A DNA stretch of 64,000 nucleotides, from positions 192,001 through 256,000 of the forward strand of contig CAWJGT010000023.1 of assembly GCA_963842525.1 (NCBI GenBank). Reading direction: 5' to 3'. This document shows, piece after piece, positions 1,393-15,687 of the stretch. The notes below the pieces were generated by a model, which was not told the DNA's origin, ran no database searches, and was given only the letters and a program-made list of their open reading frames with translations. Position numbers and translations under genes: made by a program. Source of the DNA: an uncultured Holophagales bacterium (GTDB lineage: Bacteria > Acidobacteriota > Thermoanaerobaculia > Multivoradales > UBA5704). Numbering within the stretch: the first letter of the stretch is position 1; every line of letters starts with the position of its first letter.

Positions 1393-2334
1393 ATGTCGGC
1401 TCTGGTCAGCGTTCGGGGGCGATCGCAAGCGACCGCGTGGAGATACCGGCGGCTTGTGGAGCGGCTGCTCAAGGACGTGGCGCAGCCGATTGCGCAACTC
1501 GACCAACGGTTGATCGAGAAGCATCTGCGGCGCCTGCACGTGGCGGGGCGTGGGGAGAGTGTTCGCCGAGGGTTGGTCGTGGCGATCCGGAGCCTGGGCG
1601 AATGGTGCCTGGCGCACGGGATCATCGAGAGCAACCCGGGCGCTTCGCTGGCGGGACCGCGGCCCTACCGGCGGGAAATCAAGGTGCTGACGGTTGCAGA
1701 GGTGAGCCGTCTGCTCTGGGGGGACGCGCCCGGGACGCTGCCGAAGAATCCTGTGGAGATGCGGAACCGGGTGCTGCTGGGGGTGACGTATGTGGCGGGG
1801 CTGCGGGCGTCGGAGATCGGTCCTCTGGAGGCAGAGGGGGTGGTATGGCACGAGGCCGGCCTGATCTTCAGCATTCTGGTGCGGCGCGGGAAGGGCTCGG
1901 GCCAGGACGTCCGGCTGCCGCTTGACCGGCCGGTGTCTCGGATGCTCGGAGTGTGGCTGGCGTCCAGGCCGGCGGGGCGGTTCCTGTGGGGGCGCCCGCT
2001 GACCCGGGGGGCGGTGCGCAATATTTTTCTCGATCGCTGCGCGGAGGTGGGAATCGCGGCGGCGGGCCGGAGGCTTTCGCCACACATCCTTCGACATAGC
2101 CTAGCGACGCATTTGCTTCAGGAAGGTGTGGACATTCGTCAGGTTCAGCTCTTTCTGCGGCATCGGTCGATCGCGACGACGGAGATGTATCTGCATGCGG
2201 ATGTGGACCGTCTGGGGTCGGTGTTGATCCGCAAGAGTCCTCTGGAGCGGGGGCGGCGGAAGAAGGTGGCCCCGCTACGCCAGGCGCTGGAGCAGCTCCT
2301 GGGGAAGCTCGGAGGGTTGGCGCGTCCCACCTGA
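1393..2334 (+). CDS. Tyrosine recombinase/integrase, XerC/XerD-like
   Basis: Full catalytic set: GLRASEI (R), GKG (K), HILRHSLATHLL (HxxR), LRHRSIATTEMY (H, Y). N-terminal SAM-like region. No IntI-specific insertion seen. Confidence 0.93.
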   Translation: MSALVSVRGRSQATAWRYRRLVERLLKDVAQPIAQLDQRLIEKHLRRLHVAGRGESVRRGLVVAIRSLGEWCLAHGIIESNPGASLAGPRPYRREIKVLTVAEVSRLLWGDAPGTLPKNPVEMRNRVLLGVTYVAGLRASEIGPLEAEGVVWHEAGLIFSILVRRGKGSGQDVRLPLDRPVSRMLGVWLASRPAGRFLWGRPLTRGAVRNIFLDRCAEVGIAAAGRRLSPHILRHSLATHLLQEGVDIRQVQLFLRHRSIATTEMYLHADVDRLGSVLIRKSPLERGRRKKVAPLRQALEQLLGKLGGLARPT

Positions 2335-2370
2335 GCGGAAGGACGAACACGGACGGACACCCCGCCCGGA

Positions 2371-2420
2371 CCCTCACCCCAACCCTCTCCCACCCGCACT
2401 CCCTTCCCTCCGGGAGAGGG
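2371..2420 (+). repeat. REP-like palindrome (CCCTCACCCCAACCCTCTCCC...GGGAGAGGG type)
   Basis: CCCTCTCCC/GGGAGAGGG stem; a related copy lies inverted at 7867-7920. Confidence 0.7.
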
Positions 2421-2569
2421 CGCCACCGCCCAAAAAGCTGGACTGACCAAAACTCATGTTCTGATCAGTGGTTTTCCACACCGGACGGCAGCGAGGAAAT
2501 GCCCGTCCGGCTTGAGTTTTCTCGCACTGAACCGTCGCCCAGACCCCCCCGCAGCCGGCTCTACCACGG

Positions 2570-2592
2570 AAAACGAAACCCAGTTTCGTTTT
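2570..2592. other. AT-rich perfect inverted repeat (terminator or protein-binding site)
   Basis: AAAACGAAAC-CCA-GTTTCGTTTT followed by TT. Confidence 0.5.
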
Positions 2593-2989
2593 TTGCGGCA
2601 CGGAAAGGCCCGCCGGGATTGGGTTTTCCGCGATTTTGAGGGGGCGAAAAAGTTGGTTCTAACCCCTGTAGAAAGGCAACCGTAGGAAGGTGGTTTGAAC
2701 CGACCGCCGAAGGCGGCGGAGGGGGGCGGGTGGGCGGGGATGAGATCGGCTCGGATTGGGTGGGCCCGCTGGAGGTTCGGAGGCCGGCTTTCCACGGCCG
2801 CAGGCTCCGGCGGGCCCACCCGGCCTTAGGCCGAGGCCCCTTGCAGGGGCCGGAGGGGGATGGGCGGGGCGGGGTGGTCGAATAAACCCGGCAGGTTGGC
2901 GGAGCGCTTCGAAGGCATGGCTCCAGCGGCCTGCGGAGACAAGCTGCCGGACCTTGTTGCGGGGGGAGGCCCGGGTAGGTGCCCCCCCT

Positions 2990-3020
2990 GGTTAACATAG
3001 TGCAGTTCATTATGTTAAGG
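2990..3020. other. dif-like palindromic site, candidate tyrosine-recombinase core site
   Basis: GGTTAACATAG-TGCAGTTCA-TTATGTTAAGG; TTATGTTAA matches the XerD arm of dif; perfect TTAACATA/TATGTTAA inverted repeat. Confidence 0.55.
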
Positions 3021-3902
3021 CGAAGCCCGTAGGCGGGGAGTGGCGCAGGGCGAGGGTCGGATAAAGTCGTTCATTTATCGGACCCTCGCCCGGTGGGAGG
3101 GGGGAGCCGCCCCCGCCGGAGCCAGGGGCGGGCAGCTCCCGGGCCGGAGGGTGGGGGAAATCAAAATGGGGTGGGCGGCCGGGGATTGGGTGGGCGCACC
3201 GGCGGATCGACGACAGGCTTTCCACGACCACAGTCTCCGGGGGGGCCACCCGGCCTTGTTGAAACACGGCCGCCATCCCCACGGCGGAATGGACCTTGAG
3301 AGGGTTGGGTGGCGGGGCGCTGCCATCCCACGGCGGTGCCCGGCGCGCGGGGGGAGGGCTTTGCGCCAGCGTCTTGTGGGGGCGCGCCTTCCAGGAAAGA
3401 TCCGGGGACGCGGGTGGGTGGAGGGACGTTGTCATCCCCACGGCTGGTTGGACCTTGCGCGGGTGGCGGGACGCTGCCATCGCCGCGGCGGCTGTCCGGC
3501 GCGCGGGGTGGTGGGTTTTGCGCCAGCGTCTTTGTGGGGGCGCGCCTTCTCGGGCAGCTCCGCATGGAGACGTTGCCCTCCCCCACCTTCGAATGGAGCT
3601 CGAGCGGGTGGGAGCAGGTTGCGGAGCGTCAGCGAAGTCAAGCTGCGGCGGCGGGGGGAAATCGAAATGCGGGCGGCCGGGAGATTGGGCGGGCGCGCCG
3701 GAGGACCGGAGGACGGCTCTTCACGGCCGCAGGCTTCGGCGTGGCCACCCGGCCTTATGGGTCGAGGCCCCTTGAGGGACCGGAGGTGGATGGGCGGGGC
3801 GGGGTGATCGAATAAACCCGGCAGGTTGGCGCAGCGGTCTTCGAAGGCATGGCTTCAGCGGCCAGCGGAGCCAATCTGCCGGACCTTGCTTGATGGGTGG
3901 AG

Positions 3903-3968
3903 CGGGTCGCGCACTGTGCACGTGAGTGGTCGGCCTGGGTGGTGGTCACGTGCACTGTGCCGATCCCG
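3903..3968. repeat. Long imperfect hairpin inside an array spacer
   Basis: GCACTGTGCACGTGA ... TCACGTGCACTGTGC (14/15 complementary) flanked by CGGGTCG/CGATCCCG. Confidence 0.6.
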
Positions 3969-4951
3969 CGCGCGGGGGAAATCAAGATGGGTGGGCGGCC
4001 GGGAGATTGGGTGGGCGCGCCGGAGGACCGGAGGACGGCAGTTCACGGCCGCAGGCTTCGGGGCGGCCACCCGGCCTTGTAGGGTGGAGGCTCCGACTGC
4101 GAAGAGGCTGAGCGGAGCGCGGGTGGGAGCAGTTCGGCGAGCAGCTTGCGCGGAGCCGATCTGCGGGGCGGAAAGCTGCGGGGACCACGATGGCTGAGCC
4201 GACAGAGGAGCGGAGGGCGGCGAACCGGACGGGCCGGGGGTGGTTCGCCGACCCGGAGCTGCTCTGTCGGGGCAAGACGGCTCGCAGGTCCTCCCCATCA
4301 AATGGGTGGGCGGCCGGGGATTGGGTGGGCGCACCGGAGGACCGGAGGCCGGCTTTTCACGGCCGCAGGCTTCGGCGCGGCCACCCGGCCTTGCAGGATG
4401 GAGGCTCCGACGGCGAAGAGGCTGAACGGAGAGAGGGCGGGAGCAGTTCGGCGAGCAGCTTGCGCGGAGCCGATCTGCGGGGCGGAAAGGTGGGAGGCCA
4501 CGATGGCCCTACCGCCGATGGAGCGAGTACGTCCCCGCACGGAGCTGCATCGGCGGGGCACGGCGGCTCGCAGATCCTTCCCATCAAATGGGTGGGCGGG
4601 TGTGGAATTGGGTGGGCGCGCCGAAGGACCGGAGGACGGCTGATCACGGCCGTAGGCTTCGGCGCGGCCACCCGGCCTTTTCAAAAGACGGCCGCCGTCC
4701 CCGCCCGTGGGTGGAGCTCGCGCGGGTGGCGGGTGGAAGGTTGCCATCCCCACGGCCAGGTGGATCTCGCGTGGATGGGAGCAGGTTGGCGGAGCGGATG
4801 GCCGGATGGCCGCCCCGAAGGCCGCGGCCGTGAAAAGCCGGCCTCCGGTCCGCCCGCGGGGCGGCGCTGAGTGGGGCCGGTGTGGCAGCATGGTCTCAAC
4901 TGCCCTCCTGGATGATCCACTACAGCCATGGTAAGCTTTCCTTCGATAGCC

Positions 4952-5230
4952 ATGGAAAATCTTAAGATCTGGCTTCTTGTTGCAGCTCTGGTTGCAGTCG
5001 GCGTGCTCGGAGCGACAGTGTCGCATCAGGTGCAGACTATCGCCCATCTTGAAAAGGGCCTCTCCTCACCTCAACCGGCCTCAGCGCCTATAACGGCAGT
5101 AGGAGGCGGCCGTGTATCGAATGAAAGCGGCGGTGCCTACGGCCGAACCGCTGAGGCGCCAACAGAGAGTACGACGACGGAGTTGCTGGTCATAATCCAG
5201 GGCCGCGATCGCTATAAGGCCGGTCTCTAA
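4952..5230 (+). CDS. Small exported/membrane-anchored hypothetical protein (AT-richer island)
   Basis: MENLKIWLLVAALVAVGVLGA signal/anchor followed by a Ser/Thr/Pro-rich linker; may be the detached N-terminus of the next gene. Confidence 0.5.
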   Translation: MENLKIWLLVAALVAVGVLGATVSHQVQTIAHLEKGLSSPQPASAPITAVGGGRVSNESGGAYGRTAEAPTESTTTELLVIIQGRDRYKAGL

Positions 5231-5349
5231 CGGTGTGTCGCTGAGTTGAATGGTAAAGTAGCCACCGCCGAAGCCCTGGAATCTAGCTGCATGATTAGGC
5301 GTGCTCGAACATCTTGATTATTATCTGAGCCCCTGGGGCCTAAAAGTCG

Positions 5350-6198
5350 ATGACTGAAGAAGAATTGCGGGGAGCTATAAAGGCACGGACAAACGAGAAA
5401 TGGTTGATCTATATTCACGGATTCGCTTCGTCGGCCATGAAATCCCTGGAACGGGTAAACAAAATTGCCGAAGGTGAAAGATTTAATGTTCTTCTCCTAG
5501 ATTGGCCAAGCGGCATTATGTTGGCGGGGTTATGGCCTCGTTATGCTCACGGTAAATACTTGAAGGCAGGAGAGTCAGGGGATATATTTTCTCCATTGCT
5601 TAGAAGGCTATTTTGGACTACCGAATCGAACGCGCCTCAGGTTCGTGAACTTGACTTGGTGTCTCACAGCATGGGCGCTGAAGTTTCACAGAGGATCTTG
5701 CGATCTGTTCCAGGAGGTATTCAAGAAAATATTCTCATTGCTCCGTGTACTTACGCGAAGTACTTCGAGCAGGATCTCAAAGGGCTAGCGTCCAAAGTTG
5801 TGCGCGTTACAGCCTATGGCTCCACAATAGACAAAGTATTGGCCGCTGGTCACGCAGGCAATCAAGGGTACGTGGATGACTCGCGTTCATTGGGGACTCT
5901 TTATCGACATAGATATAACGACGATTACGACCTTATCAATGTAACTTGCCAGTATCCCAACTGGTCTATTTCAAATCTCGTCTACGCACATTTCCCAAAA
6001 ACAGACGATTTCTACGAAGACTTGCATGAGGTGCTGCAGCACAGTGCCATAGAGGAGCGAGCCAACATCATTTGGGTTGAGTTTAAGTACCGCACGCCTC
6101 TGGGGTTTGAAGAGTTCAGATATAGCCTTTGGAACATGGGTGACTGGGCATGCTCTAAAGCGAAGCAGGGTACGATGCGGCCTATACCTAGGCGTTAG
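5350..6198 (+). CDS. Alpha/beta hydrolase, DUF900-like
   Basis: LIYIHGF, LLDWPS and nucleophile elbow SHSMG, then ILIAP; visibly lower GC than the host genes. Confidence 0.8.
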   Translation: MTEEELRGAIKARTNEKWLIYIHGFASSAMKSLERVNKIAEGERFNVLLLDWPSGIMLAGLWPRYAHGKYLKAGESGDIFSPLLRRLFWTTESNAPQVRELDLVSHSMGAEVSQRILRSVPGGIQENILIAPCTYAKYFEQDLKGLASKVVRVTAYGSTIDKVLAAGHAGNQGYVDDSRSLGTLYRHRYNDDYDLINVTCQYPNWSISNLVYAHFPKTDDFYEDLHEVLQHSAIEERANIIWVEFKYRTPLGFEEFRYSLWNMGDWACSKAKQGTMRPIPRR

Positions 6199-6204
6199 CC
6201 ACCT

Positions 6205-6670
6205 CACACCTCACCTGCCGAGGGCGTCCTCTCCGCGTCTCCGCTCAGGGATGGAGTTCGCGCGGGGTTGGCGCCGCCGTCCCGCCTGGATGCTTGTGCG
6301 CGGGGCGGCGGCGATTGTGTCAACGCTCAAGTGGAGACGCCTGCGAGGGAGCTCCAGGGACGCGGGTGGGGGGCGGGGCGGTTGCAGTCGCCGCAGCGGG
6401 AGCGACCTCGTGCGGTGGTCAGGCGGCGCTGTCATCCCTCGCGGAGGCTGCGGGGGTCGATAACGTTTCCGGAAACGAAACCCAGCCGGCGGTCGTCGCT
6501 GCGAGGGCTGTCTAGTAAGAGGTGGTCGGGTGGCGTTGTCCTCGCCGCGGCAGGTGCCCGGCGCGCAGAGCGGTGGGGTGCGTCAGCGAGATCATGGTGG
6601 CGCGCCTTCGCGAGTGGCTCCGGGACGGGGGTGGGTGGCGGAGAGACCGCCGCCACCTCGGGAGCTGACC
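6205..6670 (+). repeat. Degenerate copies of the array spacer module C
   Basis: ggtgcccggcgcgc...gcgtcagcg...ggcgcgccttc...ctccgggacgggggtgggtg (6553-6640) matches 3336-3420 and 3495-3550. Confidence 0.55.
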
Positions 6671-7866
6671 GGAGAGGGTTGGGCGAATGGCGTGGTCCTC
6701 CCCCACCACCCTGGAACAGCGATCGGTCCGGATCTGCGGGCGGAGGGCTTCTTCTTTTCCCACGGACGGTGAGTCCCGCGAGGGTGGGCGGATGGGGGGG
6801 CGTGCTCGTGGAATGCGCATAGACAAACCTAAGTTCTTCTTTCCGGGCTTGCCAGAGCCGCCCGGGCCGCCTCCAGGCCTGCGTGCGGGCCTGCGTAGCC
6901 GCGTGCGGACTTGCGTGCGGCTCGCGCGGCAAATTCTGCGGCCCCCACCCCCCTCCGCCCCCTTCGGTTCAGCTCTCTCGCGGATGGAAATTTCAGAGGA
7001 ACGGAACGAAACCTCAGGGAATCTCGGTATGACGATCTGAAATTTTCTCACTAGATCTCAAATGGAGCTCGGAGCCTGCTTTCGGGACCCAGGGATGAAA
7101 AAGCGTGCCGCTGCCACCCGCCGTCCACTCTCGTCTAGAACCGGGGTCAAGGTGCCGTGGCGACCGGACCCTAGATGGTAGGCTGCCGATGTTGGCCGCT
7201 GGAGTGCCCAGCGCGAACCGACTGGCGAGCCAAGCAGCTGGGCCACTCGATGGCCGTGGGGACTGCTGGGCCGCTTGGCGATCCAGGCGGCTCCAGTGTG
7301 CCTCTGCAAGGCGCTCTGCGGCGTTTCCCGGCCGGCGGCAGTAGCAGCAGGGGGGGCCGCACAGCCAAACGGGTTCACAGGCTCAGGGTAGCTGTCAGAG
7401 AGGCTTGGCTTTGATCGGACCGCTGGAGCACGATCGCGAGCAACGGGCGAGAGGTGAGGGACCCTGCCCACCGGCCGGCGATGACGCAGACGCCTTGCTC
7501 ACAGGAGTGCAGGGTCGAGGCGAGCCGACCAAGCCAGCCAGCGGCATGCTGGGGAGGGCCTCGGGTTCCGCCTTCATGAGGACCGGGACCCCGAGCGGCT
7601 CAACGGCCGGCGCCGCACTCCCGGCCAGTCGTCCATGTTGACACTTTGTTACCCCCAAGTGACCCGGGAGCACTCGTGGAAAATGAAGCCACTGAAAACA
7701 AACCACTTACACGCAGTGACCGGGTCTGGGGGGACGTAGATGAGGCTATGTACCGTATAGGAAGCGGAGAGCGGTACAGCCAGGTCGGCTGGCGCAGCAC
7801 GCTGCGCCCCTACAGCCTTTCCGGAAAGATATCGGATGGACCTGGCTACGAACGCTCCGCCTGCGT

Positions 7867-7920
7867 CCCCCCTCTCCCGGCGGAAGGGGGGGCGATGGGA
7901 GAGGGGGACAGGGGGTGAGG
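7867..7920 (-). repeat. REP-like palindrome directly after the recN stop
   Basis: Minus strand CCTCACCCCCTGTCCCCCTCTCCCAT...GGGAGAGGGGG. Confidence 0.7.
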
Positions 7921-9652
7921 TCACCGTCCCTTGGCCGCCCCGGCGATCAGCTCCCGGGCGTGGGAGAGGGAGAGCTGGGTGACCTTCTTGCCGGCGAGCA
8001 TGCGGGCGACCTCTTCGATGCGGGTTTCGGCGTCCAGCGCCTCGACCCGCACGCTGGTCCGCCCCTCCTCGACCTGCTTGCTGACCTTGAAGTGGAGGTC
8101 TGCATGCGAGGCCACCTGCGGCAGGTGGGTGACGGCGAGGATCTGCCCCAGCTTTCCCCGGGGCGCCCTGGCCAGGCGCTGGAGCTTCTTGCCCAGGGCC
8201 GCGGCCTCGGCGCCGCCGATCCCGGTGTCCACCTCGTCGAAGACCAGGGTTGGCCGCGCTTTCTCCTCGCGGGAGGCGAGCTGCAGGGCGAGATGGATGC
8301 GCGACAGCTCGCCGCCCGAGGCGATGCGCGCCAGCGGACGCGGCTCCTCGCCCGGATTCGGAGCGAAGAGGAAGACGACCTGGTCGACCCCGTCGCGGCC
8401 GAAGTCGACCGCCTCACCGTCCATCAACAGCGGGCTGTCGGACCGGCGCCGCCGCTCCAGGCCGACCGTGAGGCGGGCCCGGCCGAGCCCCAGGTCGCTG
8501 AGCTCTCCTTCGACCCGCTCGACGAGGGCCTTCCCCCACTCCTCTCTCTTCTTCGAAAGGACGAGGGCTGCCTGCCGGTAGTCCGCCAGGGCCGCGGCCA
8601 CCCGCACCTCCAGCTCGTCGCGGTTCTCGGCGTCTCCTTCGAGCTCGGCGAGCTCGGCCTCGATCTCCTGGCGGCGCGCGAGGACGGCCGCGCTGTCGGC
8701 GCCATGCTTGCGGAAAAGACGTTCCAGGAGGGCCAGCCGGTCCTCGATCGCGTCGAGCCGTGCCGGATCGGCTTCGAGGCCGTCGAGCCGCCGGCCGAGC
8801 GCCGCGGCCAGCTCGGCCAGCCGGATGTGCACCTCCTCGAGCTTCCGCAGCCCAGCCGGTCGCCAGCGGCTCCCAGGTCTTGACATCCGCCAGGAGGTCC
8901 TGGCTCTTCCCGATCCTCTCCAGGGCTGAGCCCTCGTCCTCGGAAAGGAGCGAGAAGCAGGTACCGAGGGCGCGGACGATCGACTCGACATTGCGCAGCA
9001 CCGCGCGCTCGGCGTGCAGCTCGGCGTCCTCCCCGGCCCGCAGCTTCGCCGCGTCGATCTCGCCTGCCTGGAACCGGAGGAGGTCCAGCCGCTCGCGGCG
9101 CGCCCGGTCGTCGCCGGTCAGCCGCTCCAGCCGCTCGGCGAGCCTGGCGTGCTCGTCGAACACCGCGGCCACGCGAGCGAGGAGCGGCTCGGCCTCGGGG
9201 CCGCCGCTGCGGTCGAGCAGCCCCTTCTGCAGCTCGGGCTCGACCAGCCCCAGCTCGTCGCGCTGGCCGTGGATGCGCAGGAGATAAGGAGCGAGATCCG
9301 TCAACAGCCGAAGGGTCGTGGGCTGATCGTTGACGAAGACCCGGTTCCGGCCGCTCCGGGCGATCTCGCGGCGGACCAGAACCTCTCCGTCCTCTACCGC
9401 GAGCCCCGCCTCGTCGAGCACCCGTTGCCACTCCGTCCCGGACGGCTCGAAGACCCCGCTCACCGACAGCGTCTCCGCGCCGCTGCGGATCATCTCGCCG
9501 CTCGCCCGCGCTCCGGCGAGGAGGGACAGCGAATCGACGACGATCGACTTGCCCGCGCCCGTCTCGCCGGAAAGGACGTTCAGCCCCGGCCCGAACTCGA
9601 CCGATGCCTCGGCCAGGACGGCCAGGTTGCGGATGTGGATCTCGCGCAGCAC
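7921..9652 (-). CDS. recN: DNA repair protein RecN (+1 frameshift near 8844, probably a sequencing error)
   Basis: N-terminus LNVLSGETGAGKSIVVD (Walker A) in ORF 8414-9652; C-terminus ASGGELSR, VFDEVDTGIGG, VTHLPQVA in ORF 7921-8991; the frames join at GCGGA(A)GCTC. Confidence 0.93.
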
Positions 9653-9797
9653 GCGGGGTGTCTACTGGGACTTCGTCCACCGGGGGACGTTAGCGCCGGA
9701 GCATATCAAAAGAGGGGCGGGTACGAGCGGGATTCCCGGTTTCGGGAACGCGAGCTTGTCATGGGGCACCGCGTTTAGTGTATCATTCGCATCTGAC

Positions 9798-10039
9798 ATG
9801 GCTCCCCATACCGTAACTCTACAGCTCCCACCACCGCTTTATGAAGAGCTGGTTCAAAAGGCCGCTGAGGCCCAACGCAGCTTGGAGGCTGAGCCTTGGA
9901 GTTGCTGGTGGCTGTCATGCCCTCGAATGAGACGCTGCCTCCTGACCTTGCCCAGGCCATCGAGGGCCTTTCGGTCCTGGACGAGGACGCACTCTGGCAG
10001 GCGGCTCGCCATCGCTTGGCGACCGATGCCTGGCGCTGA
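9798..10039 (+). pseudogene. Small antitoxin-like hypothetical protein, frameshifted and probably truncated
   Basis: MAPHTVTLQLPPPLYEELVQKAAEAQRSLEAE continues in another frame as LELLVAVMPSNETLPPDLAQAIEGLSVLDEDALWQAAR. Confidence 0.5.
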
Positions 10040-10118
10040 GCCTCAATCGGCCCTCTCTGGTTACAGCGCGCCGTCTGTGGACGGCTGTAGGCTGGCATCC
10101 GCCTAAAGATTGATCCCC

Positions 10119-10514
10119 TCACCCCTTCTTCGGCCCGTTCCACGTCGTCGGCACGAACTCCGGATCCTCCTGCGCCCTTCGTTCGAAGGCGAGGAAGTCG
10201 TAATAGCCGCAGCGGTTCTGGCCCGGGTAGTTGCGGCAGATCTCGGGCCTCGCCTCGTAGACCGTGCAGCGGCGGGTCTTCCGGTCGAGGAAGCGGCAGG
10301 CGGTGCCGTAGACGGGATCGGGCAGGTGGCGCAGGACGATTTCGCCTGGCTCTTCGCTCTTCTTGGTAAACTTCCGGGCTGCGACCTCCAGGCTGACCCC
10401 GAAGTGCTGGGCCAGCCTGGCGACGTCGGAGGGCTCGACCGGGATGCGCGGGTAGGAGCAGCAGTACGCGGGGCACCGGTCGCAACAGTAGAAGATCGGC
10501 AGTGAAGCACCCAT
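10119..10514 (-). CDS. YkgJ-family cysteine-cluster (Zn/Fe-S) protein
   Basis: CDRCPAYCC...CRFLD...RCTVYEARPEICRNYP pattern. Confidence 0.85.
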   Translation of the reverse strand: MGASLPIFYCCDRCPAYCCSYPRIPVEPSDVARLAQHFGVSLEVAARKFTKKSEEPGEIVLRHLPDPVYGTACRFLDRKTRRCTVYEARPEICRNYPGQNRCGYYDFLAFERRAQEDPEFVPTTWNGPKKG

Positions 10515-10561
10515 TCATGGCATTGTAGCCGCAAAAGACCGACGGCAACGACGGAGATCTC

Positions 10562-12568
10562 ATGAGAGCCAAGACCCTGGCATCGATCCTCACCGCCCTC
10601 CTGCTCGCGCTCGCGAGCGGCACCGTCCGGGCCGCCGAGCCGGACACCGACGTCGTGCCTGTCCCGGACAGCATCGTCGTCAAGAACGTCCCCCCAATCC
10701 AGGGGCGGACCGACGACCTCCTGCCGTACGAGAACATCCGGACGGCGACCGTGGCGGACTGGTTCCCCAAGGAACGCCGGCTCCTCATCCGGACCCGGTT
10801 CGCCCAGTCGGTCCAGCTCCACGAGGTCGGGATGCCGATGGGCGCCCGCAAGCAGCTCACCTTCTACAACGATCCGGTCCTCGGCGGCTCGGTCCGCCCC
10901 AGCGATCCGAGCCAGGTCGTTTTCACCTTGAACGAAGGGGGCGCGGAGAACTTCCAGATCTTCCTGCTCGACCGCTCCACCGGCCAGGCACGCCGGTTCA
11001 CCGACGGCAAGAGCCGCCACCAGGGCGGGCGCTGGTCGCGCGACGGCAAGCTCATCGCCTATGTGAACAACGCGCGCAACGGCCGCGACCTCGACCTCTA
11101 TGTGGCCGATCCGGCGGTGCCGGGCAGCGAGCGGCGGGTGATCGAGCTGCAGGGCTCCTGGGGCACGCTCGACTGGAGCCACGACAACCAGCGCATCCTG
11201 CTCTCCGAGGACATCTCCGCCAACGAGGGGTACCTCCATTGGGTCGACATCGCGACCGGCAAGCTGCACACGATCACGCCGCGCGGCGAGAAGAGGGAGC
11301 CCACGGTCTCCTACCAGGGCGGCCTGTGGTCCAAGGACGACCGCGCGGTCTACACCACCACGGACCGTGATTCCGAGTTCCTCCGCCTCACCCGCCTCGG
11401 TGTGGACGGCAAGGCCACCGTCCTCTCCGGCGACATTCCCTGGGACGTGGACGGCTTCGACCTCTCGGACGACGGCAACCTCCTGGCCTTCTTCACGAAC
11501 GAGGACGGCTTCAGCAAGCTGCACTTCGTCAACCCCGAGACCGGCGCCTCTCTGCCGACGCCGGAGCTGCCGCCCGGCGTGGCCGGAGCCCCGCGCTTCC
11601 GCCCCGGCGCGCACGAGGTGGCCTTCGCCATCAGTTGGGCCCGCTCGCCCTCGGACGTGTACACCTACGATCCCGAGAGCCGGCGGCTCGAGCGCTGGAC
11701 GGCGAGCGAGGCCGGCGGCCTGAACACGGAGGTATTCGCCGTGCCGCAGCTCGTCCGCTATTCGACGTTCGACGAGGCCCGCCCTGGCGAGAAAAGAACG
11801 ATCCCGGCTTTCGTCTACCGGCCGCCGGCGGACCGCTTCCCGGGCCGCCGCCCGGTCTACATCAGCTTCCACGGCGGACCCGAGGGGCAGGCGCAGCCGG
11901 ACTTCCTCGGCAGCGCCAACTACTTCATCAACGAGCTGGGAGTCGTCCTCATCTACCCGAACGTCCGCGGCTCGACCGGCTATGGCAAGACCTACCTCAG
12001 CCTGGACAACGCCGAGAAGCGGGAGGACTCGGTCAAGGACGCCGGCGCGCTGCTCGACTGGATCGCCACCCAGCCCGACCTCGACGCGCAGCGGGTGATG
12101 GTCTCCGGCGGCTCGTACGGCGGCTACATGGTGCTCGCCTCGCTGGTGCACTACGGCGACCGCCTGTGCTGCGCCTATGACACCGTCGGCATCAGCAACT
12201 TCATCACCTTCCTCCAGAATACGAGCGACTACCGGCGGGACCTGCGGCGGGCCGAGTACGGCGACGAGCGCGACCCGAAGATGCGGGCGGTCTTCGAGCA
12301 GATCTCCCCGGCCCGCAAGGCCGACCGCATCCGCCGGCCGCTGCTGGTGGCCCAGGGCGCCAACGACCCGCGGGTGCCGCTGTCGGAGTCCGACCAGATC
12401 GTCGCCGCGGTCGAGAAGAACGGCGTACCGGTCTGGTACGTCATCGCCAAGAACGAGGGGCACGGGTTCCAGAAGAAGACGAATACGGACTACATGCGCC
12501 TGGTCCAGATCCAGTTCATGCGGCAGTACCTGCTGGGGGACGAGGCGGCGGCGAAGACCAGCCGCTGA
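10562..12568 (+). CDS. Secreted S9-family (prolyl oligopeptidase-like) peptidase
   Basis: Signal peptide, beta-propeller region, HGGPEGQ, PNVRGSTGYG, GGSYGG nucleophile, NDPRVP and EGHGF. Confidence 0.93.
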   Translation: MRAKTLASILTALLLALASGTVRAAEPDTDVVPVPDSIVVKNVPPIQGRTDDLLPYENIRTATVADWFPKERRLLIRTRFAQSVQLHEVGMPMGARKQLTFYNDPVLGGSVRPSDPSQVVFTLNEGGAENFQIFLLDRSTGQARRFTDGKSRHQGGRWSRDGKLIAYVNNARNGRDLDLYVADPAVPGSERRVIELQGSWGTLDWSHDNQRILLSEDISANEGYLHWVDIATGKLHTITPRGEKREPTVSYQGGLWSKDDRAVYTTTDRDSEFLRLTRLGVDGKATVLSGDIPWDVDGFDLSDDGNLLAFFTNEDGFSKLHFVNPETGASLPTPELPPGVAGAPRFRPGAHEVAFAISWARSPSDVYTYDPESRRLERWTASEAGGLNTEVFAVPQLVRYSTFDEARPGEKRTIPAFVYRPPADRFPGRRPVYISFHGGPEGQAQPDFLGSANYFINELGVVLIYPNVRGSTGYGKTYLSLDNAEKREDSVKDAGALLDWIATQPDLDAQRVMVSGGSYGGYMVLASLVHYGDRLCCAYDTVGISNFITFLQNTSDYRRDLRRAEYGDERDPKMRAVFEQISPARKADRIRRPLLVAQGANDPRVPLSESDQIVAAVEKNGVPVWYVIAKNEGHGFQKKTNTDYMRLVQIQFMRQYLLGDEAAAKTSR

Positions 12569-12571
12569 GGT

Positions 12572-13570
12572 CTACGGCGTAAAGATCGCCACGCGGTTGC
12601 GGCCGCTGCGCTTGGCCTTGAGAAGGGCGCTGTCGGCGGCGTGGTAGAGGTCCTGGGGGTTGGCCATGCCCTCGGCGAGCTCGGCGACGCCGAAGGAGCA
12701 GGTCATCGAGATCTTGAGATCACCGTAGCGGTGGTCCAGGCCCACGATCCGGTCGCGCAGCTTCGAGGCCAGGGTCTCTGCCCCCTCGGCGCTGGTCTCG
12801 GGCGCCAGGATCACGAACTCATCGCCCCCGACCCGGGCCAGCATCTGCTCGGGCCGCACCAGGTCGCGCGCCAGCGAGGCCACCTGCTTCAAGACGAAGT
12901 CGCCGCAGAGGTGGCCGTACGTGTCGTTGATCTGCTTGAACTCGTCGAGGTCGAAGATGACCAGCGACAACGGCCGGTTGTGGCGCAGGGCGCGGGCGAG
13001 CTCGCGTTGCACCTCTTCCTCGTACTTGCGCTTGTTGTAGACCTCGGTCAGGCCGTCGCGCGACACCAGCTCGTAGATCGCCAGGTGATAGGCGCTCTCG
13101 ACGTCCTGCTCGTGCAGGAACTTGAAATGCACGGCCGCGGTCTGGAACCGGTCGCCGCTGCGCAGCACGGTCCGGCCATGGATCGGATGGCCGTTGATAT
13201 AGGTGCCGTTGGTGCTCCCCAGGTCCTCGATCGTCACCGTGGAGCCGACGTAGCGCAGCCGCGCATGCTTGCGGGACAACGACATCACCTCGGGCAGGCT
13301 GATCCGGAGCGAGGCCGACCGCCCGATCTCCAGCGTGGTCGCCGGGGACAGGCGGTATCTCGTCCCGAGCCGCTGGCTCTCCGGATGGGCGATCAGGATG
13401 ATGTCGGCCTCCGACTCGAGGAGGGACGGATTCTCTTCGTCCGGAGCCCGGCTGACATTCTGGAAGGTATGGGTGAGCCCGCTCTCCTGCGAGATCGACA
13501 GCTCGTCCGTGTCCGAGCCCCCTCCCCAGGAGGGGCGGTCGCGGGAATCGGACATCTGCGGGTCGCTCAT
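12572..13570 (-). CDS. FHA-domain diguanylate cyclase
   Basis: FHA motifs IGRS, SRKHA, DLGSTNGTYING; GGDEF domain DLDEFKQINDTYGHLCGD, ARVGGDEF. Confidence 0.93.
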   Translation of the reverse strand: MSDPQMSDSRDRPSWGGGSDTDELSISQESGLTHTFQNVSRAPDEENPSLLESEADIILIAHPESQRLGTRYRLSPATTLEIGRSASLRISLPEVMSLSRKHARLRYVGSTVTIEDLGSTNGTYINGHPIHGRTVLRSGDRFQTAAVHFKFLHEQDVESAYHLAIYELVSRDGLTEVYNKRKYEEEVQRELARALRHNRPLSLVIFDLDEFKQINDTYGHLCGDFVLKQVASLARDLVRPEQMLARVGGDEFVILAPETSAEGAETLASKLRDRIVGLDHRYGDLKISMTCSFGVAELAEGMANPQDLYHAADSALLKAKRSGRNRVAIFTP

Positions 13571-13752
13571 TGGCCTGCGCTCCGGGCTCATGGGTGAAGA
13601 TAAGGCAGGAGTGATCCTACCATATCGGCGCGCCTTCTCCGGAAGGCCGGAGGGTGGGCTCACCCTGAGCGCCCCTGTCCTGGACACGCGGCGCGATTTG
13701 CGTAACAATATTGGCAATCATGCATCAGTGCGGACCTGTCCTGGCGAAAAGA

Positions 13753-15687
13753 ATGGCGATCCACTGGATCCGCGTCCTGCTCGCCGTTCTCTGCGTCCTC
13801 CCCGCTGCCGCGGCCCGCGCGCAGACCAACGCTCCGGCCCATCCCGGGTTTCCGGCCCCGCCCAATGGCAACAACCTAGGCCTCGTCACCAACAGCAAGG
13901 CCCTGGTCGTCGACCTGGACAACAACGGCAGCGCGCAGGAGATCGTGGTGGGCACCAACACCGGCCGGTTGCTCGTGCTCAACCACGACGGGACGGTCCG
14001 CACCGGCTGGACGGGCGGCAAGACCCTGCGCTCCGAGGTCGCCTCCAGCCCGGCGGCCGGCAACCTGGACGCGGACAGCCAGCTCGAGATCGTCGTGGGC
14101 TCGGGCTCGGCGGTCCCGGGCAATGAAGACGGCGAGGTCGTGGCGTTCAACGCCGACGGCTCGGTCCTCTGGCGTTTCTCACCTCTCGACCACTATCCGC
14201 TGGACGGCCTTCCCGACGCCGTGTTCGGCACCCCGGCGCTGGGGGACCTCGACGGCGACGGCAAGGACGACGTCGCCTTCGGCGCCTTCGACTTCCGGGT
14301 CTGGGCGTTGAAGGGGACGAACGGCGCGGTGCTGCCCGGCTGGCCGGTGTTCGTGCGCGACAGCATCTGGAGCTTCCCCGCTCTCGCCGACCTCGACGGG
14401 AACGGCAGCCTCGAGATCATCATCGGCTCGGACGTCCACCTGGAGGGCCCCCCCATCAACACGCCGCAGGGGGGCGCCCTGTGGGTCTTCCGCAGCAACG
14501 GCTCGAATCATCCGGGCTTCCCCCGCTTCCTGACCTATGCCGAGCAGGGGGTCGAGGTCGGCATCCAGGCCTCTCCGGTGGTGGGGGACGTCACGGGGGA
14601 CGGCTGCCCCGACATCGTCGTGGGCACCGGAATGCCCTGGCCCACAGGCACCACGGTCGGCCGCTTCCTGCACGTCTATCAGCGCGACGGCACGATCCCG
14701 CCGGGGTGGCCGAAGGCCCTCGCCGGACAGGTGGTCGGCTCCCCCGCGCTGGGCAACCTGGACGCCGACGCCGCGCTGGAAATCGTCGCGCCGGTGATCA
14801 AGTTCGTGAACGCCGGCGGCTTCGTGGCGCCGAACGAGGGCTACGTCTACGGCTTCAACGGCGACGGAACGCAGATCTTCCAGCTCCGGCCGAAGACCTA
14901 CACGGGAGCCAACGCCGACACGATCGGCGAGCCCATCATCGCCCAGGTCGGGGCCGACAACCCGGCCATCCTGGTCAGCTCGGTCGGCTTCGACGTCGCC
15001 CTGATCTCCAAGACGGGGACGCAGCTCTCCGAGGAAGGCCCGCCCTACGACAAGCTCATCTACACCACGCAGCGGCCGGTCGCCGGGCCGGCGGTCGCCA
15101 ACCTGGACGCCAACGGCACCCTCACGCTGGTCGCCGCGTCCGGGAAGAACGTGGCCGATGCGGACGATCTCGGGGTCTTCGCCTGGGACCTGGGCGCGGT
15201 CGGCGCCCTGCCCTGGCCCCAGTTCCGCCAGGGCCCGAAGCGCACGGGCACGGCGCCCGGGACCACGGGCTGCGCGCTCCCCTCCGAGTCGCTCAACTAC
15301 TTCACCTTGACGCCCTGCCGGGTCTCCGACTCGCGCCAGGCGGGCAACCTCACCTACGGCGGCCCCAAGCTGGTCGCCGGCGAGCAGCGGGAGATCACCT
15401 TCCACAGCAACCCACACACGAGCTGCGGCGTGCCGGGCACGGCCAAGGCGGTGGTCATCAACGTCTCGGTCACCGCGCCCACCCACGCCGGCTCGCTGCG
15501 CCTCTTCCCCGGCGGCGACGGCGTGCCGTCCAGCTCTACCGTCTCCTTTGGACCCAACCAGACGCGCGCCACCAGCGCGGTCATGCCCCTGTCCTTCGAC
15601 GACCGGGGCAACCTGGCCGTCTATGTGGACATGCCGGCCGGCGGGCAGGTGCACGTCATCCTCGACGTCTTCGGCTATTTCCAGTAG
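13753..15687 (+). CDS. Secreted FG-GAP/VCBS-repeat protein with C-terminal TPCR...GYFQ domain
   Basis: Signal peptide; repeats PALGDLDGDGKDD, PALADLDGNGSLEI, PVVGDVTGDGCPDI; C-terminal domain shared with 23770-24237. Confidence 0.88.
   Translation: MAIHWIRVLLAVLCVLPAAAARAQTNAPAHPGFPAPPNGNNLGLVTNSKALVVDLDNNGSAQEIVVGTNTGRLLVLNHDGTVRTGWTGGKTLRSEVASSPAAGNLDADSQLEIVVGSGSAVPGNEDGEVVAFNADGSVLWRFSPLDHYPLDGLPDAVFGTPALGDLDGDGKDDVAFGAFDFRVWALKGTNGAVLPGWPVFVRDSIWSFPALADLDGNGSLEIIIGSDVHLEGPPINTPQGGALWVFRSNGSNHPGFPRFLTYAEQGVEVGIQASPVVGDVTGDGCPDIVVGTGMPWPTGTTVGRFLHVYQRDGTIPPGWPKALAGQVVGSPALGNLDADAALEIVAPVIKFVNAGGFVAPNEGYVYGFNGDGTQIFQLRPKTYTGANADTIGEPIIAQVGADNPAILVSSVGFDVALISKTGTQLSEEGPPYDKLIYTTQRPVAGPAVANLDANGTLTLVAASGKNVADADDLGVFAWDLGAVGALPWPQFRQGPKRTGTAPGTTGCALPSESLNYFTLTPCRVSDSRQAGNLTYGGPKLVAGEQREITFHSNPHTSCGVPGTAKAVVINVSVTAPTHAGSLRLFPGGDGVPSSSTVSFGPNQTRATSAVMPLSFDDRGNLAVYVDMPAGGQVHVILDVFGYFQ

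Follow-up and report, generated by a model that had tools for sequence, protein, structure and literature searches.

Introduction

In single-recombinase Xer systems, such as XerS-difSL and XerH-difH, the recombinase gene is located beside its site. Retroregulation in phage lambda (int-attP-sib/tI) involves an integrase gene followed by the crossover site and, on the far side of the latter, by an RNA hairpin and a terminator. Large structured non-coding RNAs (ncRNAs), among them GOLLD and ROOL, have been found in prophages. Here we analyze a locus that recalls all of these, located in a stretch of 64,000 nucleotides (hereafter the window) that corresponds to positions 192001-256000 of contig C23 in the genome of an uncultured Holophagales bacterium (G000; 9.95 Mb, 67% GC, 34 contigs). 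In it, the gene of an Xer-like tyrosine recombinase is followed by a 28-bp inverted-repeat core, which we call X, and by a non-coding region in which a 64-nt hairpin is repeated. A preliminary description of this DNA had focused on the hairpins, considering that they might be the recombination sites of an integron-like system or else processed ncRNA units; of these two options, we prefer that of structured ncRNA.

As in integrons, a tyrosine recombinase adjoins an array of imperfect, strand-specific, structure-defined hairpins with conserved mismatches, and a double-strand site lies beside the gene. However, there is here no IntI domain and there are no RYYYAAC/GTTRRRY boxes, the repeated pieces are non-coding and keep a fixed order, gene and array run in the same direction, and relatives have one or two hairpins. 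With Xer/dif the locus shares an Xer-like protein and an 11-6-11 core directly beside the gene, but it is present in 5-9 copies per genome, on mobile elements and with a patchy distribution, its protein scores far under the XerC and XerD cut-offs, and the site comes with a structured region of 1-3.5 kb. The lambda arrangement is matched in the order of its parts, and in that recombination would change what follows the integrase gene, whereas the folded region is far larger here, includes a near-invariant domain and is repeated, and the integration site is only a candidate. The multi-helix, conserved non-coding region of around 1 kb on phage-like or mobile DNA is reminiscent of GOLLD and ROOL, yet it is without a match in Rfam, is associated with a recombinase and its site, and has tandemly amplified modules. 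Finally, repetitive extragenic palindromes and bacterial interspersed mosaic elements (REP/BIME), with their RAYT proteins, are also imperfect palindromes of a few dozen bases that form mosaic clusters with other short motifs; in contrast, the unit described here is of about 80 nt, is confined to 11 loci with no dispersed copies, and has no Y1 transposase nearby. A full-text search of the literature, of a kind that does not extend to supplementary tables, returned no description of the element. A mobile tyrosine recombinase with a simple site is of a known kind, while its structured partner is possibly new.

Results and Discussion

Organization of the module

The explanation that we favor, and to which we give an even chance of being correct, is that the window contains one copy of a multicopy mobile module in which the recombinase and X are accompanied by an extensive structured non-coding region, probably an RNA. 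This module would have three parts: the Xer-like tyrosine recombinase, a cognate 28-bp inverted-repeat core, X, a short way past the gene, and a folded, G-rich region of 1-3.5 kb free of open reading frames (ORFs), which would comprise a leader, an E domain, hairpin and A-type modules and a tail of repeats. The 64-nt hairpin would then be one stem-loop domain of the folded region, and the hairpin-containing modules would have multiplied in tandem in G000 to yield arrays of 3-11. Strand exchange would most likely occur at X and not at the hairpins, while the folded region would work as a single strand of + polarity, most likely in the form of RNA, whether as a structured ncRNA of large size or as a 3' region with a retro-regulatory role past the crossover site. 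The features of the locus, in coordinates of the window, are as follows:

1393-2334, + strand: Xer-like tyrosine recombinase, 313-aa core ORF (PF00589, E 6e-24)
2340-2441, + strand: variable stretch from the stop codon to X, with GGAC/CACGGAC direct repeats and a REP-like hairpin (CCCTCTCCC...GGGAGAGGG) at 2369-2420
2442-2469, + strand: site X, 28-bp inverted-repeat core with 11-6-11 layout (ACTGACCAAAA / CTCATG / TTCTGATCAGT), candidate recombination site
2470-2710, + strand: leader, with H1 at 2481-2510, a terminator-like stem-loop and T-run at 2568-2595 and a stem-loop at 2655-2701
2758-2821, + strand: hairpin copy 1, variant CCCGCTGGAG/CTCCGGCGGG
2955-3165, + strand: E domain, about 200 nt, multi-helix, nearly invariant, one per locus
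3188-3251, + strand: hairpin copy 2, 746 nt past X, the place of the single hairpin in relatives
3687-3750, + strand: hairpin copy 3
4009-4072, + strand: hairpin copy 4
4323-4386, + strand: hairpin copy 5
4610-4673, + strand: hairpin copy 6
4800-4867, - strand: hairpin copy 7, inverted and partial (model positions 21-80), with the inner hairpin and right arm kept and a different left arm

Site X as candidate for strand exchange

When the 12 leader copies of G000 were aligned, similarity started abruptly at X, and the sequences to its left were unrelated except within subfamilies. Related loci were also collected from genome, viral and metagenome collections (L-numbers below; C-numbers are contigs of G000), 56 of which were eligible for the evaluation of X, having kept the 3' end of the gene and at least 230 nt downstream. 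X followed the recombinase in 46 of the 56, at a distance of 2-134 nt from the gene in 30 loci and of 160-2727 nt in the others. Its arms are symmetric in 8-10 of 11 positions, and the layout corresponds to that of dif, lox and FRT sites (arms of 10-13 bp, spacer of 6-8 bp). The inner AAAA/TTCT asymmetry (A.C) was present in all 57 X sites, while the first four bases of the spacer are type-specific. Four types, given here as left arm / spacer, follow the identity of the respective recombinases to the protein of the window:

Type 1: ACTGACC / CTCAxx; recombinase identity 83% or more
Type 2: AGT(G/A)ACC / GCGTxx; recombinase identity 77-79%
Type 3: AGTC(C/A)CC / (A/C/G)CGTxx; recombinase identity 72-76%
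Type 4: A(G/T)TCAAC / GTCCxx; recombinase identity 57-60%

A hybrid site was found in L004 and L051, which combine a type-1 recombinase, left arm and spacer with a type-2 right arm and leader; these two loci, one in a metagenome-assembled genome (MAG) and the other in a metagenome, are probably the same element. In G001, a relative with a long-read genome, the motif CAAAA-N6-TTCTG occurs 10 times, versus none for the reversed control, and nine of the occurrences are X sites. All nine are followed by a hairpin, with a spacing of 743-772 nt in eight cases; a recombinase gene or a remnant of it is located upstream of seven and neither is found upstream of the other two.

The architecture of the site, its co-variation with the recombinase clade, the homology breakpoints and the hybrid site make X a candidate for strand exchange, and in our opinion the recombinase probably acts there, as far as can be judged from sequence comparisons. 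If so, the two would constitute a previously undescribed recombinase-site pair, and the four natural arm/spacer specificity types, co-varying with the enzyme, would offer a series for studying or borrowing tyrosine-recombinase specificity.

Several observations weigh against this scheme. X is followed by TTTT(T)CC and resembles a weak intrinsic terminator, and a scan scored a terminator on the - strand. Two X-leader-hairpin modules of G001 lack any recombinase remnant. No element flanked by two X sites was found, the nine X of G001 being one per module with none at the far ends, and in C1 and C9, where cargo genes separate the recombinase from X, these genes are not flanked by a second X; integration by recombination between two X sites is not visible in the sequences. 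In addition, five loci with at least 1 kb past X (L004, L051, L059, L062 and L074) have no hairpin. Alternatively, X might be no more than the terminator of the recombinase gene, with the enzyme acting at some other site, a possibility that we regard as unlikely, though with a real chance of being right. The stem-loop with its short T-run and the terminator scored on the - strand would fit such a role, the covariation of the arms would be expected of an RNA stem as well, and there is one X per element. It does not agree well with the 11-6-11 layout, with an A.C asymmetry that is kept in 57 of 57 sites, or with type-specific bases in the first four positions of the spacer. A second, better terminator is located 100 nt further on, X is present without an upstream gene in two G001 loci, and at the hybrid site the flanking homology switches.

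Four soil metagenome runs were compared with positions 1300-2760. The contigs obtained were short pieces of relatives, in which the stretch from the stop codon to X was replaced by other letters ending at about 2429-2440, the likeness of one contig starting at 2438; among the contigs covering 1300-2760 there was no joint informative on excision. Short direct repeats (AAGGAC/CACGGAC) are present at 1100-1215, before the recombinase gene, and at 2340-2365, between its stop codon and X. GGAC repeats, which might act as accessory binding sites, also precede X in loci without a recombinase gene. The inner AAAA/TTCT is shared by another 11-6-11 palindrome, TGTAACAAAAA CATACC TTCTTGTTACG, observed at C26:10924-10951 and C12:307-334. 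The copy in C26, which has a distant tyrosine recombinase (26% identity) 1.5 kb upstream of it, could represent a sister system.

The recombinase

The protein had initially been described as an intact XerD-like recombinase devoid of the insertion characteristic of IntI. Its Xer-like nature was confirmed: XerD was the best match both in NCBIfam and in PDB, where the closest solved structure is that of Escherichia coli XerD (1a0p), with scores that do not reach the equivalog cut-offs (XerD, 129.3 versus 329.6; XerC, 125.6 versus 335.2). The absence of an IntI-type insertion was borne out by the IntI model TIGR02249, which scored 56.8 bits against a cut-off of 265 and matched residues 226-270 only, by PRK15417 (42.9 versus a cut-off of 435), and by an alignment of 10 homologues in which no such insertion was found, the only insert being an unrelated one of 25 aa in P0119. 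As for its being intact, this holds for the core starting at the ATG at 1393, where all the catalytic residues (R-K-H-R-H-Y) are present in the alignment, but not for the N-terminus: the variable extension of around 40 aa that precedes the core in 355-aa homologues is frameshifted here, with MDTKAQST from 1301 and a stop in the recombinase frame at 1333.

A single conserved chromosomal gene with its site, the hallmark of XerC/XerD dimer resolution, is not what was observed. A tblastn search with the window recombinase identified five full-length paralogues in G000, with 60-100% identity, and a 61-aa fragment at C23:167359-167541; G001 has four full-length genes plus disrupted or partial copies, and presence among relatives is patchy. 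The recombinase clade is restricted to some soil Acidobacteriota.

The hairpin unit

All six direct copies of the hairpin were found where they had been placed, starting at 2758, 3188, 3687, 4009, 4323 and 4610. The seventh, inverted copy exists at around 4800-4867 but is partial, matching only the inner hairpin and the right arm. The 64-nt core is likewise real, although the conserved paired unit is longer, of about 79-83 nt, with an outer stem around the core (CGGGG/CCTTG and TTGGGTGG/CCACCCGG).

The structure was evaluated on an alignment of 78 distinct copies from this genome and its relatives, with base pairs specified by us and with shuffled and slid alignments as controls. Paired cells made up 86.4% of the total, versus 83.2% in shuffles, and 15 of the 31 pairs showed changes on both sides, a value that was not reached in any of 500 shuffles (8.5 +/- 1.5), while slid controls gave 3-7 double-change pairs. 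Examples include C-G to U-A at columns 27/72 (15 copies) and 23/75 (7 copies), and G-C to C-G at columns 21/76 (4 copies). The compensatory changes that had been noticed between individual copies are thus significant over the whole set. With RNA as with DNA parameters, it was the + strand that gave the more stable fold in every one of the 78 copies, in agreement with the G-T wobbles previously reported on that strand; conserved G.U pairs make it the better folder. The consensus of the 78 copies begins GATTGGGTGGG and ends CCACCCGGCCTTG, and has no attC RYYYAAC/GTTRRRY ends, as had been stated. Within a non-coding module that is itself conserved, begins at X and is linked to a specific recombinase clade, the hairpin is a domain under structural constraint and specific to one strand; it may serve for binding or multimerisation, as a repeated domain.

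Leader, E domain and distal region

The rest of the non-coding region also has conserved structure. An alignment of 12 loci shows that three elements of the leader are retained, with compensatory changes and with helices at alignment columns 179-204, 210-243 and 264-317, and 35 of the 187 predicted pairs in this alignment have double changes. Helices of the folded region span 160-290 alignment columns. The E domain hardly varies between loci, even though their recombinases share only 58-90% identity, and its long closing helices enclose variable hairpins that co-vary. There is one E domain per locus, which amounts to 10 copies in G000 and 9 in G001. Its predicted folding energy is -123.9 kcal/mol for the + strand (z -5.9) and -106.5 for the - strand, a difference of 17.

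In relatives, X is followed by the leader, the E domain and then the first of one or two hairpins, past which come first an A-type module and then the G-rich, degenerate sub-repeats of 45-50 nt that form the tail. Sequence past X was, in our judgement, sufficient in 18 related loci, of which 13 had a hairpin and five had none; L011 and L012, which end within the E domain, were excluded from this count. A search with a covariance model of the hairpin gave one further match, located in an IMG/VR contig that is the sole carrier of the recombinase in that collection, and this contig was also the only match for the E-domain pattern in the viral collection. Runs of G3-5 with a G-quadruplex pattern are found between leader and E domain at 2855-2877 and at 11300-11345 of L003; the position of these G-run stretches is conserved and their sequence is not. 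Beyond the hairpins, three further features complete the region in the window:

4868-6230, + strand: foreign insert of 47% GC, delimited by its GC profile, with a membrane-type ORF (4928-5230) and a DUF900 alpha/beta hydrolase (5350-6198; PF05990)
6236-6644, + strand: tail module T, with G-rich degenerate sub-repeats of about 45-50 nt
6850-7050 (R1) and 7040-7746 (R2), + strand: distal conserved non-coding segments

The tail module starts around 15 nt past the last hairpin in other arrays, and here it resumes at 6236, beyond the insert. The insert has no other copy in the genome and interrupts the tail beside the inverted hairpin; its membrane-type ORF is of 100 aa. R1 is present in 15 copies in G000, each of which is located within an array or 0.3-3.7 kb past one, and R2 has five further copies.

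That the folded region functions as RNA seems to us quite possible, a little short of an even chance. This reading is based on structure modeling and on analogy, that is, on the size of the region, the long-range helices, the conserved unpaired stretches, the G.U bias and a position past site and terminator similar to that of lambda sib. Two points weigh against it: a sigma-70 scan of 2300-4900 did not find a promoter, and single-stranded DNA (ssDNA) would give the same strand asymmetry as RNA. No match at gathering score to Rfam 15 was obtained over the 64-kb window, and relaxed scans (E up to 1-5) of 2300-7200 and 6700-8000 returned chance-level matches only. If the RNA reading is right, this folded region of about 1 kb with a near-invariant core would be a candidate new large ncRNA of soil-bacterial mobile elements. 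A more specific version, rather unlikely in our view, is that the region from X through leader and E domain to the hairpin represents a novel class of large structured RNA working together with the tyrosine recombinase. Such an RNA would scaffold, guide or gate recombination at X, or control a lysogeny-like state, with the tandem hairpin modules as repeated protein-binding or multimerisation domains, and it would be the first RNA partner described for an Xer-type recombinase.

The + strand could alternatively act as folded ssDNA when the element replicates or is transferred, serving for priming or as a single-strand promoter like those of plasmid leading regions. We give little credence to this possibility, even though strand-specific folding is also obtained with DNA parameters, the module is found at the ends of elements with replication-type features (33-nt iterons in loci of the L003 type and, in L112, a helicase-like gene, read by eye, not scanned), and there are defence-type cargo genes nearby. 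Genes for conjugation or rolling-circle replication did not turn up in any of the examined loci, and long-range helices in a fold of around 1 kb would suit a stable RNA better than a transient DNA fold.

Hairpin arrays in the genome

Both blastn-short and an nhmmer profile were used for a census of the hairpin in G000. All 70 copies are within 11 clusters of 3-11 hairpins, with no solitary copy, so that the unit is not scattered genome-wide in the manner of a REP, the finding that the preliminary description had named as contrary to its proposal. The link between hairpins and recombinase that it had pointed out is reinforced by the paralogues: an array is found 0.4-4.1 kb downstream, on the same strand, of each of the five full-length genes, and the association recurs in other genomes, in most cases with one or two hairpins and not with arrays. 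The 61-aa recombinase fragment has no array nearby. A full recombinase gene is missing from five arrays (C19, C25, C4, C9-728k and C9-40k). Its final few bases survive at C19 and C25, about 60 nt of a C8-type gene end are retained at C4 and C9-728k, and C9-40k is a short convergent array. The array in C12 is interrupted by the end of the contig.

The pieces between hairpins in G000 are 59 and were sorted into 15 types, 49 of them belonging to seven repeated types of 147-563 nt: type A, of about 210/235 nt (22 pieces); type B, of about 147 nt (9); type C, of about 419 nt (5); type D, of about 242 nt (5); type E, of about 352 nt (4); and types F and G, with two pieces each (G of about 562 nt). 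Eight are singletons. The proximal part of different arrays follows a common order (E-C-D or E-G), after which A or B recurs in tandem, and the arrays are 88-90% identical to one another across 1.2-1.9 kb. Hairpin variants keep to their neighbouring module, without shuffling. The hairpins recur at periods that are not divisible by three (227, 290 and 314 nt, for example), and ORFs inside the array region are only read-throughs rich in Arg, Gly, Pro or Ala. Since the modules are repeated, ORF-free and arranged in a shared order, and given the similarity between arrays, sequence analysis indicates that these are paralogous copies of one locus grown by tandem duplication and not captured genes. 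The copy numbers, 70 in G000 versus 10-12 in G001, together with the one or two hairpins of relatives, indicate that the long arrays result from local tandem expansion.

These data bear directly on the integron-like interpretation, in which the hairpins would fold in ssDNA as attC-like sites and the recombinase would insert or excise the intervening pieces. The hairpins are certainly structure-defined, with conserved mismatches and strand specificity, the arrays are downstream of a tyrosine recombinase, and the site adjoining the gene could serve as attI. Partial hairpins are also located at rearrangement points, such as copy 7, which borders the 47% GC insert, two partial hairpins begin at the same model position (21/22), and the convergent arrays of C9 flank a VapBC pair and an Rpn-like gene (our reading, the Pfam scan being blank). 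However, the spacers are a few repeated, ORF-free modules in fixed order whose lengths are not divisible by three; each hairpin variant goes with its own module; there are no R''/R' boxes and no IntI domain; the base of the hairpin is unlike X; and relatives have one or two hairpins. We therefore consider this interpretation very unlikely. The proposal that the hairpins are attC-like sites of a cassette array is not supported, in view of the repeated modules, the presence of X beside the gene and the one or two hairpins of relatives, and every testable feature of membership in the integrons failed (IntI domain, attC boxes, diverse gene cassettes). Hairpin arrays beside a recombinase may thus mimic an integron without being one.

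The same expansion could be seen as that of a satellite resembling BIME or REP clusters, with selfish or neutral modules that grow by unequal crossing-over and hitchhike beside the recombinase. Tandem expansion specific to G000 (70 copies, versus 10-12 in G001) and the mosaic of several repeat families are consistent with this idea, and a true REP-like family is also present in G000. On the other hand, compensatory changes are kept across genomes, the E domain is near-invariant in loci with recombinases 58-90% identical, the spacing between X and hairpin is of 743-772 nt in eight of nine G001 loci, no hairpin copy exists outside the module, and no Y1/RAYT gene is found at any array, despite 20 Y1 matches in the genome; the satellite idea appears decidedly unlikely. 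Other candidates were discarded as well. A dispersed REP/BIME repeat was rejected given the 70 copies in 11 clusters, the absence of solitary ones and the lack of Y1 at the arrays; a protelomerase site was dropped on account of the small size of the enzyme and of contigs that run through X; centromere-like repeats, by the absence of par genes and by compensatory changes that argue for pairing; and a CRISPR-like array, by spacers that are repeated and not unique.

Mobility, cargo and genomic neighbourhood

Carriers of the module, which we favor as the explanation for the locus, are MAGs of Holophagales, Thermoanaerobaculia or Acidobacteriota obtained from soil-type metagenomes. The E domain was detected in six of 31 related genomes (this one included) and in three of 23 genera, with 9-10 copies of the module per genome. 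Across the phylum, none of 300 other genomes matched, two candidates per genome having been scored. The upstream context varies: Mu-like portal/F and gpT head genes in L009, L019, L022, L025 and L026, and a large serine recombinase adjoining a tRNA, with iterons, in L003, L004 and L030. The iteron-like tandem repeats (3-6 of around 31-34 nt, AAAGGTGCAACCTGCTTCACCCTTT...) are located just upstream of the tyrosine recombinase, at 9360-9524 in L003, 9425-9516 in L004 and 9349-9524 in L030. Neither the arrays nor the initial 20 kb of the window were found to contain a tRNA, those of L003 and L030 being at the far end, that of the serine recombinase, and a direct repeat of the tRNA end was looked for beyond the tail and not found.

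Defence-type cargo in the surroundings of the folded region is represented by genes for a TIR-NB-ARC protein and an AAA-TPR protein between recombinase and X, by a TOTE AEP-helicase gene that precedes an extra X, and by a VapBC pair between convergent arrays. In L039 (C9), two arrays face each other across 4.4 kb (9500-13900); the interval contains a VapC(PIN)/Phd pair (VapBC), three R1 copies and what looks like a frameshifted Rpn-like gene according to our reading, with a blank Pfam scan. Many short-read contigs end 250-500 nt downstream of the recombinase gene, which fits a repeat that breaks short-read assemblies.

The 20 Y1 matches of G000 (PF01797) include none at an array locus, the nearest on record being around 50 kb away. 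A REP-like element of the CCCTCTCCC...GGGAGAGGG type is present at 7800-7920 in the window, with about 84-158 BLAST matches per 100-nt bin genome-wide; a shorter relative is that at 2369-2420, also found 2-5.5 kb upstream of the recombinase in L019, L022, L026 and L027. On the - strand, ORFs 8414-9652 and 7921-8991 overlap in different frames within 7921-9652 and together resemble one recN-type gene (translations read by eye), which suggests a frameshift or a sequencing error. Gene fragments occupy positions 583-1093, upstream of the recombinase: the segment 675-834 matches, with 84% identity, the beginning of the C4 gene for the TOTE AEP-helicase, and ORF 626-1093 resembles what we take to be the C-terminus of a P-type ATPase, a name assigned without a scan. 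Similarly, ORFs on the - strand upstream of the leader in L036 (C25, around 5250-6580) resemble an IS transposase in their N-terminal sequence, also named without a scan. This putative IS transposase may explain the loss of the recombinase in L036.

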